From Psammoneis japonica (lineage: Eukaryota): DNA of 20,000 nt. The notes beneath the pieces were generated by a model. It searched no databases. It was not told where the DNA came from and saw only the letters and a list, made by a program, of their open reading frames with translations. Positions 3,648 to 20,000 of the stretch are shown here, piece after piece. The position numbers were made by a program, and so were the translations under genes. The stretch's first letter is position 1. Each line of letters opens with the position of its first letter. The DNA is taken from positions 46,042-66,041 of the forward strand of contig QPGO01000302.1 in NCBI GenBank assembly GCA_008632985.1, read 5' to 3'.

Positions 3648-5819
3648 GGTCGTCGGAGCTTCTGGCAGCAAGTAAGCAGTGGCAACAAATTTTGCTTCGG
3701 GCTGGCGCTGAACGAAGAAACTGTTCTGTGACTGCAACACGCGTTGGGACCTGGTACAAAACCTACGTGACAACCTCCCGTACAAGTGCACTGAACGAAC
3801 TAATATACTTATTGGGAACTAAAGGTGATAATTAGTGGGTCGGACAAACTGGCTGCCTTCAACTTGCGCGCGAAGTGTCAAGGCAATCAAATTACTATCC
3901 TCATCTTTGAATAACTGAATTTGGGCTGGAATGGGGTGCGTCAGCTATCGTCAGCCAACTGGTAGAAAGGTCGTAGAAATATACATACGTGTTTTATAGT
4001 ATGTGACATGTACGGCGCGAAAATGCACGCAGACGCGCAAGATTGCCAACGTCTTATGTGTGATGGGCTACTGTGCTTCAAAGGAACGTTGGGATCGTGC
4101 GTGGCGTGCGCATCGCACTGTGGTTGCGGTTGAGAATCCCCATGGGATTCCCGGCCACCGCCTCAGCGGATCAGCACCTCGATGACGTGCAACAGTGATC
4201 CACAGCACTGGATCTAAGGTGTGTGATAAACAGCAGTAGTTGCACCGTAGAAGCAGCAGCTGACAGGAACCCGGACATGCGAGTCTGAAGGTCTGTGCAG
4301 CAATGCAGCCTGGACAAAATGGAGGACATCCGGCACTGTGCCGAGAACAAACGTCACTTCACCCATTCCACCAGGCGGAGGAGCAACATACCCCGCAACC
4401 AACCCCCAGTGCTGGGCATGCTCAGCAGCAACCTCGAGACGCTCCTCTTCCTTCCGAGTGGGGGGGGCGGGGTGCCGCGGCGATCCCTTGACACAACGCC
4501 ACAAGTTGGTCGTTCGTCATGCCGCCATTGTTGCCAACACCGCCAACTGCCAACAGACGATCCGAGATGTCGAAACCATCAAAATCCGCAGCGTCATCCA
4601 TCTTGCTCGCATCAAACAAAGGGCTGCCCTTCGTGACCGAGCGCTCGTCGTTGTTTGCTGCAATGCATTGCATGCCACGCTTCCATGCAGCTCCCAGTGG
4701 GAAATCCGCACCCAACTCCGGAGTGGGCTCATCCACAGGAATGCCACTGGGGAAAGTCTTGCCTGGTGGCAAAGGCAGGAACAGCTTCAGAACAGAGATC
4801 TGAGGGTGGTCTTCCGCAGCCGCAGGTGGAGGGAAATGCAGACGCCCCACAGGTGCAACCCAGTCATCCTCCGGTGGAGTTGTTGGGCCGTCAACAGTGT
4901 CCGGCGCCTGATTGCGAAGTCATTGAAGCTTGAAAGGAGTTGAGAGCGACAGAGACTGGGGTGTGACTCCCAATCTCGTCCGACAAGCTCCCAATGACAG
5001 AGGTGGTCCCTTCCGTCGAAGCAAACACTTGAGGGCGGGTGAGAATCATGATCCACTTTGAGCAAACAAAGGCAAACTGGGTTGCTTTCATTGGATTGGA
5101 TGTGACAGTGTGGCGAACCTCATGGTTCACACCCGGTCGAAGCGTCGAAGCCAGTGCCATTGCATTCTCGTCTGAGAACGGAAACGCTGTTGTGTGGTGC
5201 TGGTCAGCAGCACCACGACCCTGCTGGACAGCAGCGGCGGAAGGAGCAAACACAGTCATTGAACAATGACTTCACAGACTCAGTGTAAATGGCTGACTTC
5301 GGAAATTGTGAGGAGCCACTCCCATGGGTTCCGGCCGTGAACTCTGCAGGTGGAGCATCCTGTCCACAACTTTGTGGTGTTTGATTCAGATTTTCAAAAT
5401 TTTCAATGGCTGCAAACAATGTGAACCGTGAACCCTGCATGACGGTTGCTCTCAAGCAGGCACCACTGGGGCTTGGAGGACCCATCATGCTCCGTGCCTG
5501 CATCGAAACATTCGTGGCTCGGACAGACATGTTGTGTGGTCGAGCGCTGAGCATGCAGGACCAGCAGTTGAACAACCAGCAAGAAACAGAGATGCCATTC
5601 TCAAGAGGCACACACACATGAACATGTTCACAATCCCACACTCGACGCGTTCCAGATGCAGGTGGGAATCCGTGTGACATTGGGCCCGCAGACTTCTGCG
5701 TGCGAGCTCCGCAGTAAAATCACACGGTGATTAAAATGTCAATGATCGCCAACAGAAAATGAGGCAATTTTGCGAATGCACAAACTCGCACATGATTGAA
5801 GTACATCATTTTTTACTTG

Positions 5820-5858
5820 GCCAGTTACATTCTTCAGACATTGAAGAATGTAACTGGC
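5820..5858. repeat. Perfect inverted repeat, 17-bp stem with 5-nt loop
   Basis: GCCAGTTACATTCTTCA-gacat-TGAAGAATGTAACTGGC. Confidence 0.95.
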
Positions 5859-5934
5859 GCATCATTGTTTCTATAAATTTGTCACACAAAACGTCTGGGG
5901 AACAGCGAGTCTGGACAATTTTTTTAAAATGTCA

Positions 5935-5952
5935 CACGTAGAAATCTACGTG
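5935..5952. repeat. Short perfect inverted repeat with 8-bp arms
   Basis: CACGTAGA-aa-TCTACGTG. Confidence 0.85.
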
Positions 5953-6594
5953 CAAAACATACGACGGATGATAAAAATCATTGTTGTCACACGTCAGCAC
6001 TGCGAGCTCCCACCTGGGGCTGGAACGCGTCACTCGCACCAGCGAGGGGGTCAACCATGGCCGACAGCATGCGGCCATTTCCCGCCGGCGAGGGTGTGAC
6101 CCACACACGCCGAGCGGTTGTCAAGAAAGTGGCTTTTGGTTGCATAGAGGAGACCATCCTCTCAGTGTCAGGCATTGCCGCATTGGCACAGTAAAAAAGA
6201 GGGGGATGGAGACAACGACTGTTCATGAGTCGGTTCCGGAATCCCAGTCAAATTGCTCTGTCATGAGCGCAGAATTTGATGGAGTGAACATGTGGGACAC
6301 CTGTGTCACTCCCCGATCCTTAGCAATCATCAACAGAGTGTTAATTTTGCAATGAGACATGGTCGCTGCAGTGGACCATGGTTGCACCCCTCTGATGCTG
6401 ACTGCCAAGGGAACAATGCGTGGATTGGTCAGTCTAGGATCTCGTCGCGTCCGTTTGTCCTCCGTCCTCGGCCTCCCGTCTGTCCCTCGCTAGTCTACCT
6501 CCGCGATGACCCCCGCGACTCACCCAGCCACAGCTTCCTCTCATTGCTTGGCTTGGAGTCTAGGGCTAGAATAGATACCGGTAGATACTTTACG

Positions 6595-6661
6595 ATAGAG
6601 ATAGATAGATTTCTTGAAGATTGCTTGATAGATTGAATGAATGGATGGAATGGATGGATGG
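6595..6661. repeat. Imperfect microsatellite (GATA)n then (ATGG)n
   Basis: atagagatagatagat ... gaatgaatggatggaatggatggatgg. Confidence 0.7.
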
Positions 6662-6974
6662 AGCCAGCCACCGCACTCTCTCTAGAGCTAAGAGTTAGAT
6701 TTGCCATTGACAGTTTTGCTACACCCCAGAGAGCTCCATCCAGTACAGTCTCAACTCATTACTTCTATACTTCTGCATTTAAAAAAGTTGTTATCAATCT
6801 AATTCTACCTACTACTCTAACTCTACAACCACAGGCTCAGATATTCCACTAGAAAAATGATGGACGGAAGGAGCAACTATGTTGTCTTCCAACCAGAGCA
6901 CGTGAGCCTAACTTTCACGATTAAATGGCAAGATATGCTCGGTTCTAGCACCAACGTCGCTTTGATAAGTAACT

Positions 6975-9483
6975 CTATTGTTTTAGTTTGAATGTGCAGA
7001 ACTGACGATGCGTCGTTAAATCAACGGTATAGTCCGAACTAGTCAATACGCCACTTTCAATCTTTCGTGTCATCATATGAAGAAAGACGGAATTCCCAAC
7101 AGATACCTTTGCAAGACTTTTCAACTCCTCTGCACCAATGGGAGACAGGTCTAGTTGTGCTTGCAAGAGCTTGTCAACAGCTGCCTTGCTACGTTTGAAG
7201 CAGTCAGCGGCGGATGACAACAAATCGGTCTGCGTCACTTTGCTAAAGTCGGTGCCTTGTAGAAAGTCACTATACGATAGTGATGGTGGGTGAGGAATGA
7301 CTTGGAAAGCATCAAATTGTTTCTTGAATTTTTGCTCGGGTGACGTAAACTGGTATGTTTGGTGAGGCACAGCTTTCATTTGGTCTAGAGCGGTAATGAG
7401 CTATCGATACAGCGCGCAGAAACGATGCAAGGTTAGACTGGACTTGCGCCAGACATACATAAAGAATCACCGCAAAAAGGAATTGCAAAAGCTACTCACT
7501 CGAACGAGACCTCGACACAAATCTCGCCGCATTTGTACCAACACGATTTCAAATTCACTTCGCAAGTCCTGAGCCTCTTCTTCTTTTGTTTTCCCGTGAG
7601 TCTTTCTGCGTCCGGCGCCCTTCTTTTTACCCTTTTTCTGGGCTTCTGGTTGTGTCTTTTGTCGCCAAAGGGCTCTTGTCTGTTGAAACGAAACAATGCT
7701 GTTCAAAAGAGACGACAACAAAAAGTCTCTGTACCAATAAGCGGTCAACAACTCGCGGATTCCGCGAAAGAGTTCGAGCTCAATTCCAATGGCAAGGTGG
7801 CGATCCATGAGCGAGTTGGTTGTGCGAAGAATGTAGAGTGTAAAGATGGGAGGGGCGCTATCTGCACCATCACGCGCCCTGCTTTGTCCAAGGTCCACTG
7901 CATGCGCTTCTTGTTGTAGGGTTGCCCACTCTGGGAACATTACTGTGTCTATAAAAGCTCGTTGTCGATTCCGGTTCAAAAGAAATAGCTTGAGGGTATC
8001 GTAGATTGGTTTGGCTATACGACTCACAAAGGCTCGACAGTGGTGATTGTCAATGTCATTGAGTGGAACACCACTCGCTTCAACAATGTCTTGAGCAATA
8101 AGTGTTGTCACCACATGTTGACCCAAAAGAAGATCATCAAAATACAAGTAAAGAACTGATAGAGAGCGGCTGAGAATGTTCACCGACGAACTGGAGACGC
8201 GTTCCAACATGTCTCTGGTTCGACCCAGCGTCGTCCCTTTCAAAAGCAAGTCGCAAGCTACCCAGCTAACCTCAGATATAATTGTTTTGAGGGACCCGAG
8301 TGACTCTTTAGCAGATCGAAATATCGTTTTGCGGATAGGCGTGTTACCAACGAGGGGACGATTCACGTAGGGATCGAAGCACTTGGAGAGCAGCTGCTTT
8401 TCCGCGTCGCTGTACTCCGAAACGAATTTCTGCAGTTGGTCCATTTTCCTCTCTCCTAGAGCGATTATCGGCTTCGTTTTTGTGGCCACGTCACGCACTG
8501 TTGTCGCAGAAAGGCTTGTCTAGTTTCGCAGCGTTGCAGTCCACAAGCAATTGAGCTGTCTCGATACAACTATTTTCGAGAACACATTCATTTGTACTTA
8601 CCAACGGTAGACACGAACGAAGAAAGTCTAACAGAAATCCCAACACCAGTTTCACAACAGCACTGTTTGGATCGTCACCCACTAGAATAAGAGCATCATG
8701 AAGGGCATGAAGAGCGAATGCTTCGTCACCCTCGCCGAAAAAGTCTAGCAGTCCATAAGTATTCACTGAGAAATCTTCTTCCTCGTAAATGTCCGCATTG
8801 AAAGCAATGTTCTGAACGACAAAGGATATTGCTATCACACCTAATGCTGCTGCATAAACCACATGTTGTGCTGGAGTTGCGTTATTTGTCCCTGACTGGA
8901 TGACATGAGAGCGCCCATTCGTTCCGTCATGTCACCACCGGCACAATGAATTTGCATCTCTCTCACCACTTCAGCGTGCGTATACAAACAGCTAAAGGTG
9001 CTTTCACACACAGATGCACCACTCAGAAGTGATTCTAACCTTGTCAGTATCTCCAAACAAATGATTTCGGCTTCCTTCATTGTGAGTGATTCCCACGGCA
9101 AATTCTCGAGTCCTGTCGGTGTTGGTCGGGGCGGAACAGTTTGTTCACTAGATGCTTTCGTCGTATCATAAGCTGAAATGGGAAGTTCACAACAGTCAAG
9201 TTTTCGATCCATGAGCACAAGGGCAGTCATACTTGTGTGTAGGCTTTGGAGGAAGAGAGGCGTCTGCGTAAGTGTTTTACCACAACGAGGAAAATACCGT
9301 GACCGCGAGACATGCAACATACCTGAAATCATCACCACAGAGGAATGGATCTGACACCGATAAGGATGATGCGCATGATTCTACCACAGATGTGATATCT
9401 ACCCAGTTATCGCTGTCTTTAGAAACGTCGCTTTTCTTTTCGTCTCCGTCGCCACCGTTCAGCAACCCCGGCTCCGTCGTCAT
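6975..9483 (-). CDS. NAA35: N-alpha-acetyltransferase 35, NatC auxiliary subunit (MAK10)
   Basis: Family motifs WVDITS..SLHTSMTALVLMDRKLD, LSGASVCESTFSCLYTH, ADIYEEEDF, FDPYVNRPL, NRNRQR, GIELELF..AYWYRDFL. ATG at 9483; GT-AG introns 9244-9322, 8520-8601 and 7401-7499 restore frame. One unresolved frame change near 8860-8970. Confidence 0.9.
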
Positions 9484-9715: not shown

Positions 9716-11054
9716 ATGACGATGGGATTGCCCTCCCGCGATGTCAAAGCCAGCTCAATTGGATTGTTTCTCTTGATAGGGACTGGTCAACTCTTGTCTC
9801 TAGTTCTTGCCTTCCCGACTAGATTTTCAAAGCCTTTTGGCGGGAGCGTTTCATGTCGTTCGTTTGTTTCTCAATCGAAAATTGCCTTGAGTTCAGTTGA
9901 AACAGTATCTTCGAATGAAGATCTTTTGCCAGGAATTGAAGCTATCGATTCTATGAATGCGGATCTGCGTGAAAGCCTTGAGTTGTTGCGCAATCAGCCC
10001 TACTTTCGCCTCTATAGTATTGACATGTTAGCCAGCTGTGAGTACTTACCACAAGAGCTGTTTGAGTGCTACAGCGAACGTTGCGAGATCTACCCAGTGG
10101 ATGAAGAAGAAGTGAGTATCGTGCTTCCATCCCTGTTCTATGCAATGATATGTGTTTACAGTAGTTATTTTTAACCAGATGATGATTTGCTCATGCCTGA
10201 ATGCGTAGATACCGACTGATATGAAAGATGTAGACGCAGATGAACATGATTTTGAGTTGGACGGTTGGGCTCGATGGGACATGCCAACTGATGACTACTA
10301 TGACATTGAACAGTTCCCAGAAGGCTACACAGGATACGACGGATCAGATATATGGCGCTTCATTCACGATCGGATTGCTTTTGAAGGCTACGAATACGAT
10401 GATGATCATTGGAAGGCAGACTTCAACAAAGCTGTTTCGGGTTTGCATTCAATGATATCAGCTCAGGTCGTTAGAGGAATCCAAGACAAGATCGACAGTG
10501 GCGAAGAATTTACAGATGAGGAAATATGGCGTGATGCAGACGCAGAGTTTGAACGGCGTCTTGGTCAAGGTGGTGAGACCCCTCTGGCTATTGAGAACCT
10601 TTATTTCTGCTACATGCTTTTGCTTACCGGAGCGTCAAAGGCGAGAGACCGATTGTTGCAAGACTGTGATTCTGGAAAGATTGATGCAGATGCTGCCTCG
10701 GCTTTGAGGCCTGTTTTGTCAAGCGAATTACTTGATCACCCTTCTGTTGGAGTTGCGTACGCAAAGCTTCATGATCACGCTGTGAAGGACTCAGACTCCA
10801 AGGCTGCCTTGTGGGAGGCGCGGCTTCGAACAAGGGAACTAGTTCGGATCATGAATTGCGTTCAGTGCAACAAGTGCCGCCTTCACGGCAAAATATCCGG
10901 CATGGGACTGTCTACTGCACTACAGCTGAGCCTTGGCTTCACCGGAGAAGGTGGCGATGCGACGCGTGTTCATCGGGTGGAGCTCGCGTGTCTGATGGCT
11001 ACTCTCGATAAGTTCTCGAAGGCAATCGAAACATGTCAACGAATGCGTTCTTAA
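9716..11054 (+). CDS. ERO1: Ero1-like FAD-dependent thiol oxidase, 2 exons (intron 10112-10208)
   Basis: YFRLYSID..CEYLPQELFECYSERCEI (outer cysteines), PEGYTGYDG..IWRFI, VSGLHSMIS, IENLYF, IMNCVQCNKCRLHGK..GLSTAL (CxxCxxC). GTGAGT..TAG intron joins the two ORFs in frame. N-terminal signal-like peptide. Confidence 0.9.
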
Positions 11055-11482
11055 GGCAAAGTCCGACATTGCTACAAGCTCTTGATCATAATCATTCTCG
11101 ACTGAAGTACATTTTCTATATCTATAGGCAATTTTTAGATTTAACCTTTCGCTCAATCGACACAGATTCGCGTCCAACAAACTTTCATTATCTGCCCCTT
11201 ATGGCAGACATGGTGCGACATTTGGTTACCAATCAGCAGTATGTACTGTACTTCACTCCCAAGCTTCGAAGAAATTGTCCCTATGCAATATATTTGTTCG
11301 TGTGTCTCATCGTTGAGGCTCAAAACGCGTTTGTTTCCTACTTGGTTGAGGCAGCTGTAAACTCCCAGCTCACGGCTTCTTCCTCGACCTGCTTCACAAG
11401 AAAAGTCAGATGGCGACTCGATAACTGCTAATGAGGTTTCTCGAGGGCAGACACTTAAAAAAGGAGTCTCGGATCTGTTCGA

Positions 11483-13556
11483 TTAACCTGCAGTGTACGC
11501 AGGCGATCCGTTGAAACTGTCGGAACTAGGTTTTGGAGCTTGTATCTGTGAAGCGGAAGTGCTTTCGGTCTTGACAAGATCTGCGGTCGCAGGGATTGGA
11601 TTGCTTGAATCGAACGGAGAAGCTGGATTTCGGACCAACGTCACACAGAAACACTTAGCAATCCCATCGTCTCCCTTGATAAGAGAGACACAAAGACCAA
11701 GGTCATCTCGATCCTTCATCGATCCTCTGAGCAAACATGTTCTTTGACCTTGAGCCTTGGCATTAGAAGGCGGTGAAATCATTTGACTGATGAGGTCAAA
11801 CGCATTCTGTAGATCTTGACGACTTGTCAGGTTGAAGACAGTCATGGCACAAACTTCCTGCTTCGTGTAACCGGACAACGAACAGAAGAGTTCGTTGCAG
11901 TCGATAAAAGCACCGCCCATTGACGCAATCGCCTGATTAATTCGAAAGAAAGACAAACGGTTAATGCCCGGATTGATGAAATTGCGAAAATCGGACGATG
12001 GATTTTGGGACAATGTACCCTAACTTACCATACCCACTGAACATGAATTGAAGACAAACCGATATTCATGCTCTGCGATGTTTGACACCAACAAAGTATC
12101 ATCCTGTCGGTCGTCTTTGGGGTTACCAGGGTCATCGCCACCTCCACTACTCGTGTCCGGCTGTGCAAGAACAAGATAAACGGTCAGCAAAATATATCTG
12201 AATACAAATATTCCGCGCAGGAATCAGATACGTACCTGCTGATAAAAGCTCATAGCTGATTTCGGTGGCACACCACCGAAGTTTCCAAGAGACCAAACAC
12301 CATTCTGAGCCGCAACGTGCCGTACAGCCTTGGCCGCTTGCGGACCCAGTGCACCGCCTCCAATCATCTGTAGCTGCTGAATCAACTGATGCCGATCTCT
12401 ACTCACAATCAAAGCAGAGGAGGCGGAAAAGCAAGTTCAGAAAAGAATCCTTTCCAAAGGGAACTGAAATCGGCACTTCTCGGCACTTACATTTCGGATT
12501 TGTATTGATGCTGCTGCAGCATTCTGATGTAGTTGGCAGCTTCCGTCAACACCGAGCTTTTCGTTCCTTTGGGAACTATGACGCCACCACTAGATAAGAG
12601 GTTCCGAAGCTCGTTGATTTGTCGAGATATACGGAAACTCCTCTCCTTCTCGCGTGCATTTCGTTCCTCTCTCTTCTGTTCGTCAAGGTGCTTTCCTTTC
12701 TTAGCTTTGCCTTTCGCTGACTTTGCAGCTCCCGAATCCTTGGTCGCAGAGTTCGTCGCCCCTGAACTATTGGCGCGCGAAGATGGCGCACTGTCCGGGA
12801 TTTTGGTCTTTGCGTTCTTCCGACCACGTGAGGACTTTGCCTCATCGTCGTCGCTGTTGTACCCACCACTGTCGTTGTCTGACTCTCCGTTGTCTCTAGT
12901 GCGGCGCTTCTTTCCAGATAGTTGGCGAGTCCCTGAATTATTTGTACGACGAAAGAAGAGATTGAGTTAGTCACATGCATAAGCGTGCAGAAAATGAGCC
13001 TTTCGGGTTGCGAAAGACATTCACTCCATTCGTTACCTTGTTTGTTTTGGACTTGCGTCGAATCTGCCGCAGAGCTAGGCTTCTGATTCTTTCCACCTCT
13101 GTTGGCTGAGTTAATCGGTGATTTTGGCAGAAGGTTTGGAGTAGCAGCGATAGGTCCTTTCGGGGCAGTCCCTGCTGATGCCCGAGGTGAATATGTGCTT
13201 GCTTTTCTCCCACCATCGCTATCGCTTTCTCCGTTCTTCGCGTCAATCTCAGAAGCCTGAAGCGATACTCCGTTCAGCATGGCTTCCTCGCTATCGAAAT
13301 TGAATCCAAATGTATTATTTCCCAAACTAAGAATGCCTGAGTTGTCTGAGTTGTTCCCGCTGCCTCCGCCACTTGAGTTACTGCCAACGCCGCTCCCATC
13401 TCTCTTCAAGGTACGATCTTTAGTCGCTCCATTTGATGGCTTTGAACCTGCATCCGCGGCTGCAACTTTCTCCTTTGCGTCTGATATTTTTTCTTGGCTG
13501 TTTCGCGGGGGCGGTGCTTCTGAACTACTTTTCATTGATAGTCCGCCTTTGTCCAT
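11483..13556 (-). CDS. bHLH-PAS transcription factor (diatom family that includes RITMO1), 5 exons
   Basis: Introns 12933-13036, 12399-12490, 12161-12235 and 11933-12028 (all GT-AG) give one frame. bHLH: KREERNAREKERSFRISRQINELRNLL..KGTKSSVLTEAANYIRMLQ. PAS: YRFVFNSCSVGMAIASMGGAFIDCNELFCSLSGYTKQEV..TVFNLT. Confidence 0.9.
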
Positions 13557-13685
13557 AGCGAAGGTTTGTTCGGGATAGTCTACTAGCTAGAGATTGAGAA
13601 CAAGAATGAGAGATTCCATAACGTTGGCAACAATGCTGTAAACGAGAACCCGCGTGACGACGTATCGACTTCCAGACACGACACA

Positions 13686-13693
13686 TGACGTCA
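13686..13693. promoter_or_regulatory. CRE palindrome TGACGTCA, candidate bZIP/aureochrome site
   Basis: 130 bp upstream of the bHLH-PAS ATG; further TGACGT hexamers at 14092-14097 (-) and 14118-14123 (+). Confidence 0.35.
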
Positions 13694-14408
13694 GTTTCGA
13701 CAGGATGAAGAACAATATGCACGTAGCAACACGTACGCCAGTACCAAGCAACACTCCCGCCAACACAGCCACCGCTGAAAACAAAGACGATGACGACAAG
13801 AAAGCGTGCTTTTAATCGCTTCGATAACACACGATTTCACGTTGTCACTCACTTCTTTCCTTTATCGATGATTTTCTCAATACGATGTGAATTCCCAACG
13901 GGTCAAACCTGGGTGAGGTGACATGTATTAGCGACCGGCTCTGTCTCTGTTGAACTTCTTTGCCTCTTTCTTTCTCTCGTATTTTTTGTGCGGTGTTGTG
14001 TGACGACAGCACTTCTTGTTCGAAAATATATTTATATTTGTATATGTTTATAATTTCATTCAGTATTCAGTCATTAATATTCATAAGAAGTACGTCACCC
14101 GTCTCTGACGAATATGATGACGTTATCACTTATGACCGTGTCATTTTATTTATTCCATGGTAAAACGTGAAAAAGTTCCCGCCAAAACTAACAGATAGCC
14201 CTGCTTATTATTTACGAGCTCGAATTTGCACAGACATGCTCCAGAGCGTGTCTGTGCATTTACGTAGATTTTGTACCAGTCGCATCGTAGAGTGATGTTG
14301 TTCGCCTGCCCCAACGAACTCTTTCTCGTACATAAAATATTACTCACGCCTGCCGGATAGGTTGGAGGTACATTTTCCTGGTACAAACACGTAGAATTTA
14401 ACGCAGCT

Positions 14409-14479
14409 GCAGTGACCCTCGTTTTGGGGGGTCACTGCACGCGCGGTGGCAGTGACCCTCGTTTTGGGGGGTCACTGCA
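14409..14479. repeat. Two identical 31-bp hairpin-forming direct repeats, period 40 bp
   Basis: GCAGTGACCCTCGTTTTGGGGGGTCACTGCA at 14409-14439 and 14449-14479; each has a GCAGTGACCC/GGGTCACTGC stem. Confidence 0.95.
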
Positions 14480-15260
14480 TAAGCAGGGATAGTGGCGCGA
14501 CCGAAAGACCACAGTCATCTTTAATCTACTCTACTATCGTTCTCTATCTCTCTCTACTAGGAGTACCGGTAGGGGGCCTTTCTACAGTAGCTACAGTAGA
14601 GAGTAGAGCCTCTGCGTACTCTCTCTAGCTACGGTAGCTCACTGCTCTAGTAGCTGGCAGCTCTCTGCTCTAGAGAGTGGAGCTAGAGTGCCTTAGTAAG
14701 GAGAGGAGTGCATGCAAGAGAGCTGCCATACTACTAGCTAGCTAGATTCCCTACTTGACCAAGAGGAGAAAAGCATGGTTAACACCATCTGCATTGCAGC
14801 AGTTTCTGCTGAGCGTGATTGCGCTGGTTCGCCGGGACCAGGTTTCTCACAAACAAAGAACTGGGACTTCCGAGCGGGAGACTAAGTGTAGCGAAAACTG
14901 GTACAGTGCCGAAGGAGTCCTCACTCTGGAGATATCGACAAGGTTCAAGGTGGTGGTGGACCAACACGCGCTTCAACCATTGTTTTGCACGAGTGCTGCA
15001 GCATGCAGGTGCTCGTTGAGTGAGTATGGTAGTCGGTGGAATGCGAAAGCATGCGCGATCTTCACCCCGGCTCACGCACGATCGGGTGACTCAACACTCA
15101 ACCAAATGAAGACATTCGATGGGTCAAGCGACTGTACATTGTCACTTCAAATAGGTACGACGTCGATTTTAAAAGATATATCCATTGGCCTGAGAAAGAA
15201 AAGGGTGCGATTATGACAGACAACCAGCAAGATTCGGTAGCCGCTGACCAACGACCAAGC

Positions 15261-16076
15261 ATGGCAAAGAAAAGAAGCAGCTTGTTCAGTCGAGCAAGGC
15301 AGAGTTTCTACAGGTGCGTCGATGTTGTTGGTAAACATTGACAACTAACGAGCACGTCAGATCTGGAGTTTTCTGTTGTCGGATATCCCTGATTGCGTTC
15401 TTTCTCTGTTCGTGCTCTTTCAGATCTGGGGGGAAGAAAGGTGCCAGCGTGGAAACCCTTCGCGGAAACAAAGGTGCTGATTTTGAAGGGCACGCCCGAG
15501 TGAAACGGGGGAAGACAAGAGGCTTAGGTTGCTCATGCTTTGGTGGAAAGGAGGTAAGGCATTACGAGTCTCCTTCAACCTTTACCGCCAAATTTCTGGC
15601 AGGTCGAGTCGTCCCACATACTTTACTCTCCTCGCCTCTTTGCACAGGAAAAAGATCGTTTTATACTCATCAAAGGGCATTTCTGCTTCGTTTTCTCAGA
15701 CGAAGATGCGAAGTCGCCCAAGTATGCCATCGATCTCACACATAGAAAAGCTTCGATTCAAGAAGCATCAAGGGATGGTAAAACGGTTGTTCTATTAGAG
15801 ACAGGCCTCGGTGATGTGGATTACGAATTTGTGTTCGACACCAAGCAGGACAAAAATATTGCAAAGAAGTTTTCTAGCGCCGTCGGAGAAGAAGCTGCTC
15901 GAGCGGAAGCAGAACTTGTGAAAAAGCGTCTCGGCCACGAGCACTTGATGAAGACCCGGCCCTCTGTCAGATACGCGGAGAAGATTGGCGAGAAGAAAGT
16001 TGAGAGTCAACCTGATGCTCCTGTAACAGCTGCCGAAATTGCTGATGCCTCTCCACTGCCGATGAATGCTATCTAA
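15261..16076 (+). CDS. Small hypothetical protein, possible PH-like fold, 3 exons (introns 15314-15423, 15554-15647)
   Basis: Splicing gives MAKKRSSLFSRARQSFYRSGGKKG..DFEGHARVKRG..GGKE/EKDRFILIKGHFCFVFSDEDAKSPKYAIDL..VVLLETGLGDVDYEFVF..PMNAI*. The RFxLxxxxxxxF..P...I.L pattern resembles PH-domain beta strands. Confidence 0.7.
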
Positions 16077-16198
16077 AGCTATTCCTCAAGTTGTAGTACA
16101 TGAAGCGGCACAACAAGAGATCCATTTTGTGTGAAGCGAAGAAGTCTAGAGATATCTAGTAGAATGTCCCTGCGTGTTCGCCCTGCGTGTTTGGTGCC

Positions 16199-16971
16199 CT
16201 ACCTTCCAGTTGGACGACCAGCCACTGACACTAAGTTGATGCAGTATCGATTGCCCTTTTTGTCCGGGAGATTATGTCCAAGATGAGTTCCGTCTATCGA
16301 CACTGATTCTCCGTCAGGGAGAATCCTCATGTTCTCCCAAACGACCTCGTCGTCTCGAAACGACGGCTTGCAGCACAGAGAAAAGTTCAGTGGGCCACTA
16401 AATGCACATAGTACTTTATCAGAATCATATCGACGGTACGGCACTTACCCACCCATGGGAACGGCTCTCAATGAGAAACTCCTCCATAGTCCTGCCTCGC
16501 GGAGCAATGAAAAGAGGTTTGCCAGTGTTTGAGTCGTAGAATGTGATTTCACCTTTCGCAGTTTTAGCGTCATCAATAAACGAAGTCTTCTCAAAATACC
16601 CAGAGTGTTCGGCGTAGTGTCTAGTGTTGTCGTTTTGGGCAGGTTCGAGAATGAAAGTTACATGCAAAAGAAGTCATGAGAGGGTGCGTGAGAACCACGA
16701 AACAACCAAAGTACCGTGTTACTACAGCAAACTTAAATCTCCTCCCTACCTGTTGAAGTTGCAGATTCGATCCGCAGTACTTTTATCACATCCCCATCTT
16801 AAATTATCCTGAACAGGTCTGCAAAAAGAACACGAGCAAACCGGTGAATGAAACTAAGATTGAGTAACTCGCTGTCAAAGCCAAAAAAGGCTCTTACGTG
16901 TTCGAACTACCATGTTTCTTTTTAGCCATGATAGTTTCATCGCCCATAACCACTTTACTTTGTCGACTCAT
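16199..16971 (-). CDS. MsrB/SelR-like (Mss4-fold) protein, 4 exons (introns 16819-16897, 16621-16749, 16367-16448)
   Basis: Spliced product MSRQSKVVMGDE..CNFNRHYAEHSGYF..GKPLF..HGWPSFRD..GTHLGHNLPD..RYCINLVSV matches the MsrB motifs GWPSF, HLGH and RYCIN. Confidence 0.8.
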
Positions 16972-17522
16972 GGTGATGCGGTGGCCGAAAGGAGGGAGGA
17001 AGATGGTAACAACAGAGCAAGAGTTTTACTACCGGGATGCTGTCAGCGACGGCAGAAGGCCGAAGGCCGGCCGCCGCCGAAGCCCGAAGCTGAAATGAAA
17101 AACGATGAGCGCGACAAACGTGCCGTGCCAGGGGCAGACGTTGTGTTCAAAAGCCAACTAAAAAACAAATTGGTTCCTCCTCCTCTTTTAGGTGGAACTC
17201 TCTAGATAGATCGAAGTCTGAAACCGAAAGATTTTGGATTGCCGCCCTCGCTACTATCAGAAAATAGAGCCATGACGATTGCCTGCACCAATCATTTTGC
17301 TGCATTTTGCGCCGGGCGTTCGAATTAATTGTGACACATGACGGTCATTTCGGTGCGCACTTTTGCGCGACCCACGCGACATGACTAACATGCGTTAGTG
17401 CGTGGTGCTGGTTGTTTTGCTTCTGACCGTTCTGTCTTCTGTGAGGTTTCATGAGGCTGTCTGTGCACATTGATGTTGTCCAGTTGTGCATGTTGATGTT
17501 GTCTGAGGCAAGCTGCATTGGA

Positions 17523-18096
17523 TCAAGTGAACGTGGAAATGTGCGAAATTTGCGCATTGTTGCAGTTTCTTTGCCAAACAGCCAGTCCTTGTTCATGGCC
17601 ACACTCAATCCACGGCGGCTTAAGTGAAAGTCCATGTGCATGTGTTTTGCGCATTGATGCAGTTGTCTTTGCTGAGTGGTTGTTTGCAACTTGCTCAATT
17701 CCATCACCTCTGGCCACACTTCTTCTGAAGGGACTTTGCTTGCTCCTTCTCCTGCTCCGCCATCTCCTCCTCGGTGAAAAATCTCCCCGACCGCTGTGGA
17801 ATCGCCGCTGCACATGCTGCCTTCAGCTCCTCCATGGTTGAATCATCCTTGGGCGCGACCGTTGTTTCCACATGATGACTGTCCGCTGTCGTGTTGTCTT
17901 GCACAAGTGCAGAAGTGACATCAAAATTTCCCGAGGCAAGGTCAAACGCCGCTCTTGCTTCTTCCAAGGTAATCTCCTCTTTGTCTTCCTCACTCATCAA
18001 TGACTGAAGAAGTTCCGCATGTGTCTGCACCTTTTTCTTGTCCTCACCAGTTTTCTTTGGCTCGTCTGCCTTCTTTGTTTGTTGTTGCAAATCCAT
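17523..18096 (-). pseudogene. Degenerate accessory ORF downstream of the helicase, with a UBA-like segment
   Basis: Charged ORF MDLQQQTKK..ITLEEARAAFDLASGNFDVTSALV.. with no Tyr, apparently continuing in another frame (KPPWIECGHEQGLAVWQRNC). Confidence 0.4.
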
Positions 18097-18230
18097 GTTT
18101 TCTCCATTGCTGCGTTTTCTGTGACGGCTGCGTTCGCGTTTCTTGGTTTGTTGGTTAAAATCCGTTCGACGTTGTGTGACGCATGTGCAGATTTCCATGC
18201 AATGTGCTGATCTAATTGAAACATTTTGTT

Positions 18231-19939
18231 TTACGAAATTTCCGCATTTTTGCGGTTGGGGTCGCCAAACAGTTGTGCAGTGGTTGAGCATCCTAATCTA
18301 ATGTTTGTGCACCACATTGACATTTCTGTGCACTGTTGCTGAGAAAAATGCATGGCGCTTCTCTCCTTCATGAGTCTTGTCAAGGCTTTGCAGCCTTCTG
18401 GGACCTTGCATTTTCGCAGGTCCTTGCTCAGTGGCTTTCGCATGAACAGCCCTTCTCTGGTCTTTACTCTGGAGAGCACAACATGCACCCAATTCTGAGT
18501 GCAGCTCCAAGAGTGTGCAAACAACTGCGGGACTCCACTCCCTTGCAGTTTGTGCCCTGCAGTGGCATTGTTGATGACAAACGGCAGCTGGGTTGCCTTC
18601 AGTTGGAAAGTGTGCCTTTGTTCATCGCCTTCTTCTAAAATTAGGCTGGGCTTGGCGATGCAAGCCCTGAAAGCATTTGTTTTTGGCTCAACTAAAAACT
18701 TCGCGGGGTCGATGCTTTTGTTGCAGTGTTCCAATGCAACGTGGTCCACCTGACTGGCAAGTGCAGCAGGAATGCCAATGTTGTTGTCTAAAGTCACTGG
18801 TCTTGGTTCCTGTCCTGGTTTGAGAACGACCTTGTCAACAGTGGCTTGCGTTCCGTTTGCTTGACCGTTTGCCACATTTTCGTTGAAAGGTGTCATGACT
18901 CTGCATCTTCTGTAAATTCGTAAGACTGGATCCATTCTTCCTGATTGCATGACAACGTCTCCTTCACCACAGTTGTTCCAGAAGCTGTTGCAAACCGGAA
19001 ATGGTTGGCAGAGTCTCGTGCCATTCTGCACCTGCAAGTCGTCACTGAAAATCAACATTGAGTCAAGGACATCTCCATCTCTTCTGTGCAGTGTTTCTGC
19101 TCTTTTTTCGAACAGGCCAGTGTCAATTGCATCTCTGTCCTCATTTGCGCACACAGCACAGCGGAGGTCACTGGGCAGATCATCTTCATTCTGAACTGCT
19201 CGTTCGTTGATGTGCTCCATGTCGTCAACTGCAATCTTGCCAGTGCGGAATCTCTTGAGCAGTTTTCCCCATGATGGATCGTCTTTGAACCTGTGTGCAC
19301 CACGAAGTTCCATGCAGCAGTTGATCCACTCGTGAAACTCGGGACATGCATCTTTGTGTGGTGGTTTCACTCCTTTTCCAACTGGCTCTAGTTGCCTGAG
19401 GTCACCTGCGAGAACAATGTTGATGCCACCGTGCGGCTTGCTTGGTTCGCTCTTCAATGCTGTTAAATTCTCATGGAGTTTTTCTAGTTCTCTCTTGCTT
19501 GCAAAAGAAATCTCGTCCACCACCAAAAGTCTCGTGTCTGACCATGCTTCAATTTGCTCTTCGGTTGTTTGCTTTCTTCTCATGAGGCATGCAACTTGGT
19601 GGATTGTGTCCCTTTGAGAACAGTCGCAGCCACTCTGGTCAGTGCAGTCACTCTGATTGTGCTTGTTGTGAACGGCTGCTCAATGAGCGAGCAATGCTCT
19701 CTTCCGCACTCCACGACGAGGTCCATTGTGGTTGATTTGCCACTTCCACCTGCACCATGTAAAAAACACACAAGTTGCAATGTTCTGCGTCTTTGCACTT
19801 CCACGAGTTTCTTCAATCGGCGAAGGTTTGTTGCCAAATTCGTGTCTGCCATTTCTCCTGTTGAGTCATTGTGTGACGTCTCATCTTGAAGAGCGTCTTG
19901 GCAGCAAGTGAGCACAAAGGTTCCTGCTAGAAAAAGCAC
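18231..19939 (-). pseudogene. PIF1-family (SF1B) DNA helicase, degenerate and frameshifted at ~19610
   Basis: Walker A LHGAGGSGKST, Ia VTALTRVAA, Ib G/DTIH split by a 1-nt frameshift in the G run, Walker B LLVVDEISF, III GGINIVLAGDLRQLEPV, IV HRFKDD..LLKRFRTG, V QLPF..ATAGHKLQG, VI VHVVLSRVKTREGL. Confidence 0.9.
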
Positions 19940-20000
19940 GCTGCTGTTGCCTCCAGTCTTGCTTTCCTAGCCCAGTCTACGTGCGCTTGCTGCAGATCCG

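Follow-up and report, generated by a model that had tools for sequence, protein, structure and literature searches.

We describe a 1440-bp block, at positions 4261-5700 of a 20,000-nucleotide stretch of Psammoneis japonica contig QPGO01000302.1 (the whole stretch analysed is called the window), from which the dinucleotide TpA has been almost completely lost. The block forms the core of a dispersed, low-copy repeat, 2.4 kb long and set between genes (the island, 4134-6571), in which an uncharacterised gene has left a dead 5' fragment. We document the direction of the change, its restriction to TpA, its preference for particular flanking bases, its confinement to repeats and its action in situ on the copy present in the window. 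We consider it very likely that a local mutator, acting after integration on repeat DNA of any family, turned island TpA into TpG and CpA through A:T>G:C changes at TpA only, fastest at 5'-TAY, while CpG decayed alongside, the effect faded at the borders and the genes were spared.

Loss of TpA in the island

The original prediction had claimed only two TpA in these 1440 bp, at about 4389 and 5286, and an exact count agrees in both number and position, leaving TpA-free runs of 897 and 429 bases. By composition, 70.1 TpA would be expected in 4261-5700 (Poisson P 9e-28), and 42.0 would still be expected at the window's background observed/expected ratio (o/e) of 0.60 (Poisson P 5e-16). The minimum among 2000 mononucleotide shuffles of the block was 51 TpA, and no other 1440-bp segment of the 20 kb is as poor in TpA (block o/e 0.03, median 0.54). 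The window as a whole has 49% G+C, and its TpA o/e is generally about 0.5-0.6. In the block, CA and TG reach o/e 1.54 and 1.61, so it carries the combination of low TpA and raised CpA+TpG that marks a long-term footprint. The accompanying statement that CpG is plentiful holds for the absolute number, with 75 CpG left, and fails for the relative level, CpG o/e being 0.67 in the block against 0.97 outside.

The TpA-erased core proper spans 4261-5643 (2 TpA where 68.0 are expected, o/e 0.03; CpG o/e 0.65; CA+TG o/e 1.57). The low-TpA region extends past 5700, resuming with partial loss in the right part of the island at 6032-6359 (4 TpA where 17.9 are expected, o/e 0.22; CpG o/e 0.70), beyond a TpA-bearing patch at 5715-5972. 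This patch falls inside a nested miniature inverted-repeat transposable element (MITE), described below, whose insertion accounts for it. Across the island segments the loss of TpA is accompanied by loss of CpG (o/e 0.61-0.75), and a second process, CpG to TpG/CpA, runs alongside the first. The loss of TpA is confined: TpA o/e is 0.91 and 0.96 (6572-6974) in the two flanks, against 0.03 in the core, 0.17 in a Helitron remnant at the other end of the window and 0.60 in the background.

The predicted gradual return of TpA at the left edge was borne out, with TpA at 4215, 4227, 4237 and 4248, the next at 4389 and then none for 897 bp. This left graded edge, 4134-4260, has 4 TpA against 5.9 expected (o/e 0.68; P=3e-5 at the core's rate). 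At the right border of the island the grading recurs: 6360-6571 contains 5 TpA where 7.9 would be expected (o/e 0.63; P=0.03 if the rate were that of 6032-6359). It is seen again at the border of the Helitron, whose first ~220 bp have a TpA o/e of 0.60 against 0.13 (P 2e-4). Depletion thus fades across ~130-220 bp at three borders.

Borders and copies of the island

Copies of the island were studied through contigs of two sequencing runs, X1 (31-letter words) and X2, the only public ones containing this stretch, which come from one sample, possibly the assembly's own source. Single-copy X1 contigs (word depth ~62) end at 4162 and resume at 6543, which, with words of 31 letters, places the borders of the repeat near 4134 and 6571, between two unique, gene-bearing flanks. 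Summed word depth, which is a rough guide to copy number only, is 286-336 across 4003-5336 against 62.9 in the flanks, and the variant sites of the island are covered by 3-5 further contigs, pieces of other copies being 82-92% alike; the family is therefore low-copy. X2 contigs have a depth of 0-0.29 over 4003-6670 and of 0 over 17343-20000, which is no evidence for or against silence.

A search of the island ends for terminal inverted or direct repeats beyond chance, and for likeness to the Helitron end, found none, and domain searches found no reverse transcriptase in the island. Among 46 six-frame open reading frames (ORFs) of at least 35 aa in 4100-6600, Pfam returned sub-threshold chance matches only; Rfam returned only two sub-threshold miRNA rows; and a metagenome scan with the plus-strand ORF gave no match. 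The longest ORF has 226 aa; in simulations the mean was 184, and 15% of them contained one as long as 226 aa. Since TpA-free simulations reach such lengths by chance, ORF length is no evidence of coding here.

Some X1 contigs join the island differently. One (depth 50.5) links its right end at 6571 head-to-tail to ~4134, and another (depth 60) links 4177 to 6360, skipping the interior; these joins, 6571|4134 and 4177|6360, suggest that tandem or deleted forms of the island exist at other places in the genome. Next to the island on its right side, at 6604-6662, are short tandem repeats with periods of 9-13 and GATA/GGAT-like units.

A gene remnant in the island

On the minus strand the island carries a frameshifted 5' remnant (4599-5259) of an unnamed family of ~760-aa proteins, with an ATG at 5259, frame -3 down to ~4915 and frame -1 from there to 4599. 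A HMMER search with the minus-strand ORF 4425-4919 found 55 representative proteins at E<=1e-3 (best 1.9e-13), mostly of 730-860 aa and eukaryotic (P0121-P0175), superseding a word-indexed protein search with 4422-4919(-) that had found none at near lengths. In a tblastn comparison, 5235-4915 corresponds to homologue residues ~5-120, and 4910-4599, read in another frame, to residues ~130-245. The island therefore holds the first third of such a gene; one frameshift lies near 4915 and the rest is missing.

The remnant retains 69 of 96 conserved columns. At its sole conserved Tyr column (Tyr in 49 of 53 aligned homologues), the codon at 4665-4667, minus strand, is TGC (Cys), and none of its 220 codons encodes Tyr, against 1.84% in homologues. 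In a relative, the DNA of this gene family (a 1.9-kb locus found with P0139) has a TpA o/e of 0.70, which shows that TpA loss is not intrinsic to the family.

The family itself gave few leads. Pfam recognised no domain apart from a weak zf-CCCH match in 2 of 13 proteins, the C-terminus having a CCCH-like motif, and the source databases gave no names. A PDB sequence search found no relative, Foldseek against PDB with a confidently predicted model (predicted local distance difference test score, pLDDT, 83.5) found no match at E<=0.001, a protein-atlas search returned hypothetical clusters only, and a viral-contig scan with the family protein P0125 gave no match.

A Helitron remnant with the same signature

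At 17177-20000, on the minus strand, the window holds a second TpA-poor block, the 'helicase element' of the original prediction, which runs off the window with the Rep part lying beyond its end. Its ORF in the window has a PIF1 domain match and resembles 253 longer proteins; of these, 120 are listed, most of them carrying Helitron_like_N (PF14214) together with PIF1 (PF05970) and PF20209; by its Rep/Hel protein relatives the block is thus a probable Helitron remnant. Its TpA o/e is 0.16-0.17 and its CpG o/e 0.66, at a depth of ~3,900-4,500.

As had been predicted, blastn and tblastx gave no similarity between this block and 4261-5700. Of the claim that two foreign sequences share one signature while neighbouring genes do not, one part stands: two unrelated sequences share a signature that is absent from the flanking genes. 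The word 'foreign' is not established for the 4261-5700 block, since this is a dispersed repeat of low copy number, and the uncharacterised gene family of which it holds a piece could be either transposon-borne or a host family.

Direction and context of the changes

Mass balance indicates where the lost dinucleotides went. In the core, TA (-66) and CG (-37) stand against CA+TG (+98), and in the Helitron TA (-146) and CG (-56) stand against CA+TG (+198), whereas two background stretches are unbalanced (TA and CG -105 against CA+TG +31; -304 against +160). Loss of CpG covers about a third of the CA+TG excess in the core (37 of 103 lost dinucleotides).

Conserved protein columns point the same way. 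For the Helitron, where the 120 listed homologues were projected by BLAST onto the ORF, ten columns have Tyr in the majority, and the window has Cys (TGY) at six of them, His (CAY) at three and Tyr at one; 167 of 207 other conserved columns are retained. Polarity was assigned by crude parsimony, with distant homologues (36-50% identity) standing in for the ancestor. Single-step changes at conserved columns in the Helitron include 19 A:T>G:C, 15 transversions and 6 G:C>A:T, as expected of an old element with ordinary decay; the mass balance speaks for TA>TG/CA as the main loss. Of the A:T>G:C changes, 17 of the 19 in the Helitron and all 3 in the block fall at TpA. CpG>CpA accounts for 2 single-step changes in the Helitron and 4 in the island.

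The comparison with other copies, for which 40 of 496 variant rows were shown, 36 of them in repeats, is similarly one-sided. Seven of the shown rows (4262, 4264, 5729, 5863, 17644, 17705 and 18313) have TA in other copies and TG or CA in the window, and none has the reverse; CG in other copies against TG or CA in the window was seen in 14 shown rows, with one reverse. At 4261-2 and 4264-5, three other contigs have TA where the window copy has TG and CA. The conserved Tyr columns turned to Cys or His, the mass balance, the TA-keeping copies and the relative's DNA together exclude native composition or codon bias, and so uphold the view that a host process, rather than the codon bias of one element, was at work.

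Both strands are affected about equally, as judged from the similar CA and TG ratios and from the six Cys against three His. Surviving TpA in the depleted segments is enriched for YTAR (26 of 45; background 123 of 570; Fisher 5e-7) and impoverished in RTAY (1 of 45; background 156 of 570; Fisher 2.5e-5). Because the survivors are mostly YTAR, TAY is the preferred target, with A before a pyrimidine lost first.

A nested MITE as a time marker

The TpA-bearing patch belongs to a 388-bp element at 5644-6031, which is short and non-coding (Pfam found no match in it) and has the further hallmarks of a MITE. Terminal inverted repeats of 24 nt (5644-5667 and 6008-6031) are 88% complementary, a 4-bp target duplication, ACTC, lies at 5640-5643 and 6032-6035, and a perfect 17-nt palindrome occupies the centre at 5820-5858. 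Empty sites exist: two contigs of other island copies join 5644 or 5608 to 6039, 5645-6038 being absent, and 22 contigs diverge before 5644. The element is very abundant, with a bin depth of 69,196 and 112 contigs at 5693, roughly a thousandfold the single-copy level.

With a TpA o/e of 0.44 and a CpG o/e of 1.13, this MITE is young. In four of the five rows shown, the window's copy nonetheless departs from most contigs of its family, twice by TA>TG/CA (against 31-37 contigs) and twice by CG>TG/CA; these rows make up 2 of the 7 TA rows and 2 of the 14 CG rows given above. They indicate that mutation acted at this locus after the MITE had inserted. A nested element that is just starting to mutate provides an internal time marker.

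Proposed mechanism and alternatives

In the sequence of events we propose, a low-copy dispersed repeat with a dead gene fragment would have integrated between genes, the MITE inserting later. TpA would have been erased after integration by A:T to G:C transitions, fastest at 5'-TAY, with ordinary CpG to TpG/CpA decay in parallel. The process would act on repeat DNA of whatever family, on an unknown element as on a Helitron, and would fade over ~130-220 bp at the borders, leaving adjacent genes at background level. The chemistry may be that an enzyme deaminates adenine in DNA, giving inosine that is read as G, by analogy with what has been proposed for the chlorarachniophyte Bigelowiella natans. 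Targeting might be by silenced, cytosine-methylated repeat chromatin, at which the joint loss of CpG and the border gradients hint, and the chromatin-guided part of the original prediction is plausible. A broader hypothesis, which we hold tentatively and which may well prove wrong, is that diatoms and chlorarachniophytes share an adenine-directed DNA defence, perhaps old in lineages of the stramenopiles, alveolates and Rhizaria (SAR), that reads 5'-TAY in silenced, cytosine-methylated repeats. It would act in situ and continuously, as a fresh MITE copy losing TpA and CpG would suggest, and its decay over 100-200 bp at the borders would let a 2.4-kb island drop to 3% TpA while genes a few hundred bases away are spared.

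Several points weigh against this account. The polarity of the single-step changes is weakened by the use of homologues of 36-50% identity as a proxy for the ancestor; double differences of TG against CA (4224/5, 5267/8) could have arisen from either CG or TA in the ancestor; and the best DNA run may derive from the very sample that was assembled, which would make its independent support weak. Repetition alone does not predict the effect, for TpA is normal or high in the very high-copy MITE and in a small repeat at ~14.2-14.5 kb. The methylated, silenced state as the cue, like ongoing activity, is something we infer. Finally, none of the shown interior rows (4389-5643) has another copy that keeps TA, and much of the core's TpA loss may predate the divergence of the copies and thus be inherited rather than local. 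This last point, together with the small size of the family (~4-5 further contigs, 82-92% alike), speaks for the spread of a master copy that had been mutated on one occasion or was TpA-poor by nature. We nevertheless find such an inherited state quite unlikely, given the private TA>TG/CA changes at 4262 and 4264 in the window copy, the two more in the nested MITE copy against 31-37 family contigs, the grading towards both borders, which is not expected of a copied composition, the same signature in the unrelated Helitron, and the Tyr of the homologues and TpA o/e of 0.70 in the relative's DNA.

RNA editing by an ADAR- or ADAT-like enzyme that acts on A after U, with the edited transcripts then reverse-transcribed and reintegrated, seems extremely improbable to us. 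The 5' T preference does resemble what RNA adenosine deaminases prefer, a point taken up in the available text of bioRxiv 10.64898/2026.01.13.699255. The Helitron is, however, a DNA element and the island yielded no reverse transcriptase; both strands are affected, with similar TG and CA excess and with His as well as Cys in place of Tyr; and the changes are private to integrated copies. The survivors, moreover, are enriched for TAG and TAA, the opposite of what ADAR, with its 3' G preference, would leave. Modified bases can give context-specific miscalls in some long-read chemistries, so that a systematic base-calling or assembly error in repeats comes to mind as well. We judge such an artefact very improbable, since X1 contigs (31-letter words, depth ~58-63) are identical to the TpA-free core while differing from the window at a few unique sites, which means that X1 is not a mere copy of the window; in addition, in B. 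natans this signature was measured in genuine de novo mutations, according to the available text of bioRxiv 10.64898/2026.01.13.699255.

One further alternative would link the two losses: deaminated methylated CpG in silenced repeats would attract non-canonical mismatch repair, in which a Pol-eta-like polymerase miscopies A in WA. CpG and TpA are indeed lost in the same segments. As described in the available part of PMC7884765, Pol eta favours WA hotspots, of which TA has one per strand, and somatic hypermutation by this polymerase shares with the window the change of A to G at A after T and a link to nearby C-deamination lesions, in a different organism and process. We consider this route unlikely, because the AA half of the WA rule fails. 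Mutation at A would be expected in AA as in TA contexts, whereas AA sites are spared in the window: ApA o/e is 1.12 in the block and 1.55 in the Helitron, and TT o/e 1.13 and 1.06, none of them depleted, and the Helitron has one A>G after A among its single-step changes, compared with 17 at TpA.

Relation to known systems

De novo mutations consisting only of TpA>TpG/CpA have been described in integrated nucleocytoplasmic large DNA virus (NCLDV) and virophage DNA of Bigelowiella natans, in a preprint whose available text proposes adenine deamination in DNA with an ADAT2-like candidate (Mettrop et al., bioRxiv 10.64898/2026.01.13.699255). The window resembles that system in the change itself, A:T>G:C at TpA giving TpG or CpA (17 of 19 and 3 of 3 changes at TpA; conserved Tyr lost at 9 of 10 and 1 of 1 columns; 7 rows against 0), and in the clustering of low TpA with raised CpA+TpG in blocks that leave the neighbouring genome unaffected. 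As far as the preprint's available text goes, TpA-poor genes of B. natans are enriched for transposon domains, and the targets in the window are likewise repeat or mobile DNA. The two differ in lineage, B. natans being a rhizarian and the source of the window probably a stramenopile (diatom), and, by the same text, in the size of the targets, which are viral inserts of 25-186 kb in B. natans and a 2.4-kb low-copy island and a Helitron here. They differ also in the extent of loss, which is near-total in the core (o/e 0.03), unlike in the NCLDV region of B. natans (Rho 0.45). The loss of CpG, the TAY flank rule and the graded borders are features of the window that do not appear in the main text of the preprint as available, in which the words 'diatom', 'trinucleotide' and 'flanking' are absent.

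A literature search for TpA loss in diatom repeats found no report. In the available text of a P. tricornutum mutation-accumulation paper (PMC6604790), 'TpA', 'hotspot' and 'transpos' do not occur, and that of PMC4504042 mentions TA solely as nucleosome-excluding. The window is a further instance, in another lineage, of a process known from one preprint. Its TAY rule, its borders, its scale and the MITE as a time marker constrain both the candidate enzyme and the targeting signal, and the scale deserves emphasis in that a very small island between active genes has been fully erased.

Repeat-induced point mutation (RIP), a process of Neurospora and other fungi, changes C to T, mostly at CpA, in duplicated DNA, and raises TpA. 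The process in the window is like RIP in being a hypermutation, probably by transitions only, that is confined to repeated or mobile DNA and inactivates coding capacity. It is unlike RIP in that A>G at TpA removes TpA (o/e 0.03) and raises CpA (1.54) and TpG (1.61), the opposite of the RIP footprint, and in that a very high-copy MITE is barely affected. Considering this MITE, and that targets in B. natans are single-copy, duplication need not be the trigger. The decay of CpG at 5-methylcytosine in methylated transposons offers another parallel, with a CpG o/e of 0.65-0.70 in the depleted segments and 14 shown rows with CG in other copies, yet such decay cannot produce the loss of TpA.

If our reading is true, TpA-specific hypermutation is no curiosity of one chlorarachniophyte, and a major group of marine primary producers would possess a second, A-directed counterpart of RIP. 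There are also two concerns for annotation. DNA without TpA lacks the stops TAA and TAG and so gives long spurious ORFs, and true gene remnants in such DNA have Tyr recoded to Cys or His.

Flanking genes and other observations

Run X2 (labelled 'DNA?') is transcriptome-like, its contigs in 9782-16898 skipping intervals of 75-266 nt bounded by GT..AG or CT..AC. Intron positions in flanking genes, as marked by these contigs, include 10111-10209, 11931-12028, 13586-13853 and 15310-15421. At the left end of the window, an open frame at 2-2278 on the plus strand (758 aa) runs off the window start; Pfam found no match in it, and its nearest atlas clusters are Hsp70-like and commonest in Bacillariophyta (score 0.85, a lead only). 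This placement and the short GT..AG introns of the flanking genes lend weak support to a diatom source.

The two runs differ from the window at 516, 7986 and 16155, and X2 alone at 11171. Position 7986, which lies inside a NAA35-like gene, is TA in the window and CA in both runs. The short repeat at ~14198-14492 interrupts the single-copy contigs of X1 (at 14228 and 14462) and reaches a bin depth of 875; it contains two nearby copies of a ~31-nt hairpin-forming motif and has a TpA o/e of 1.1-1.4 with low CpG.

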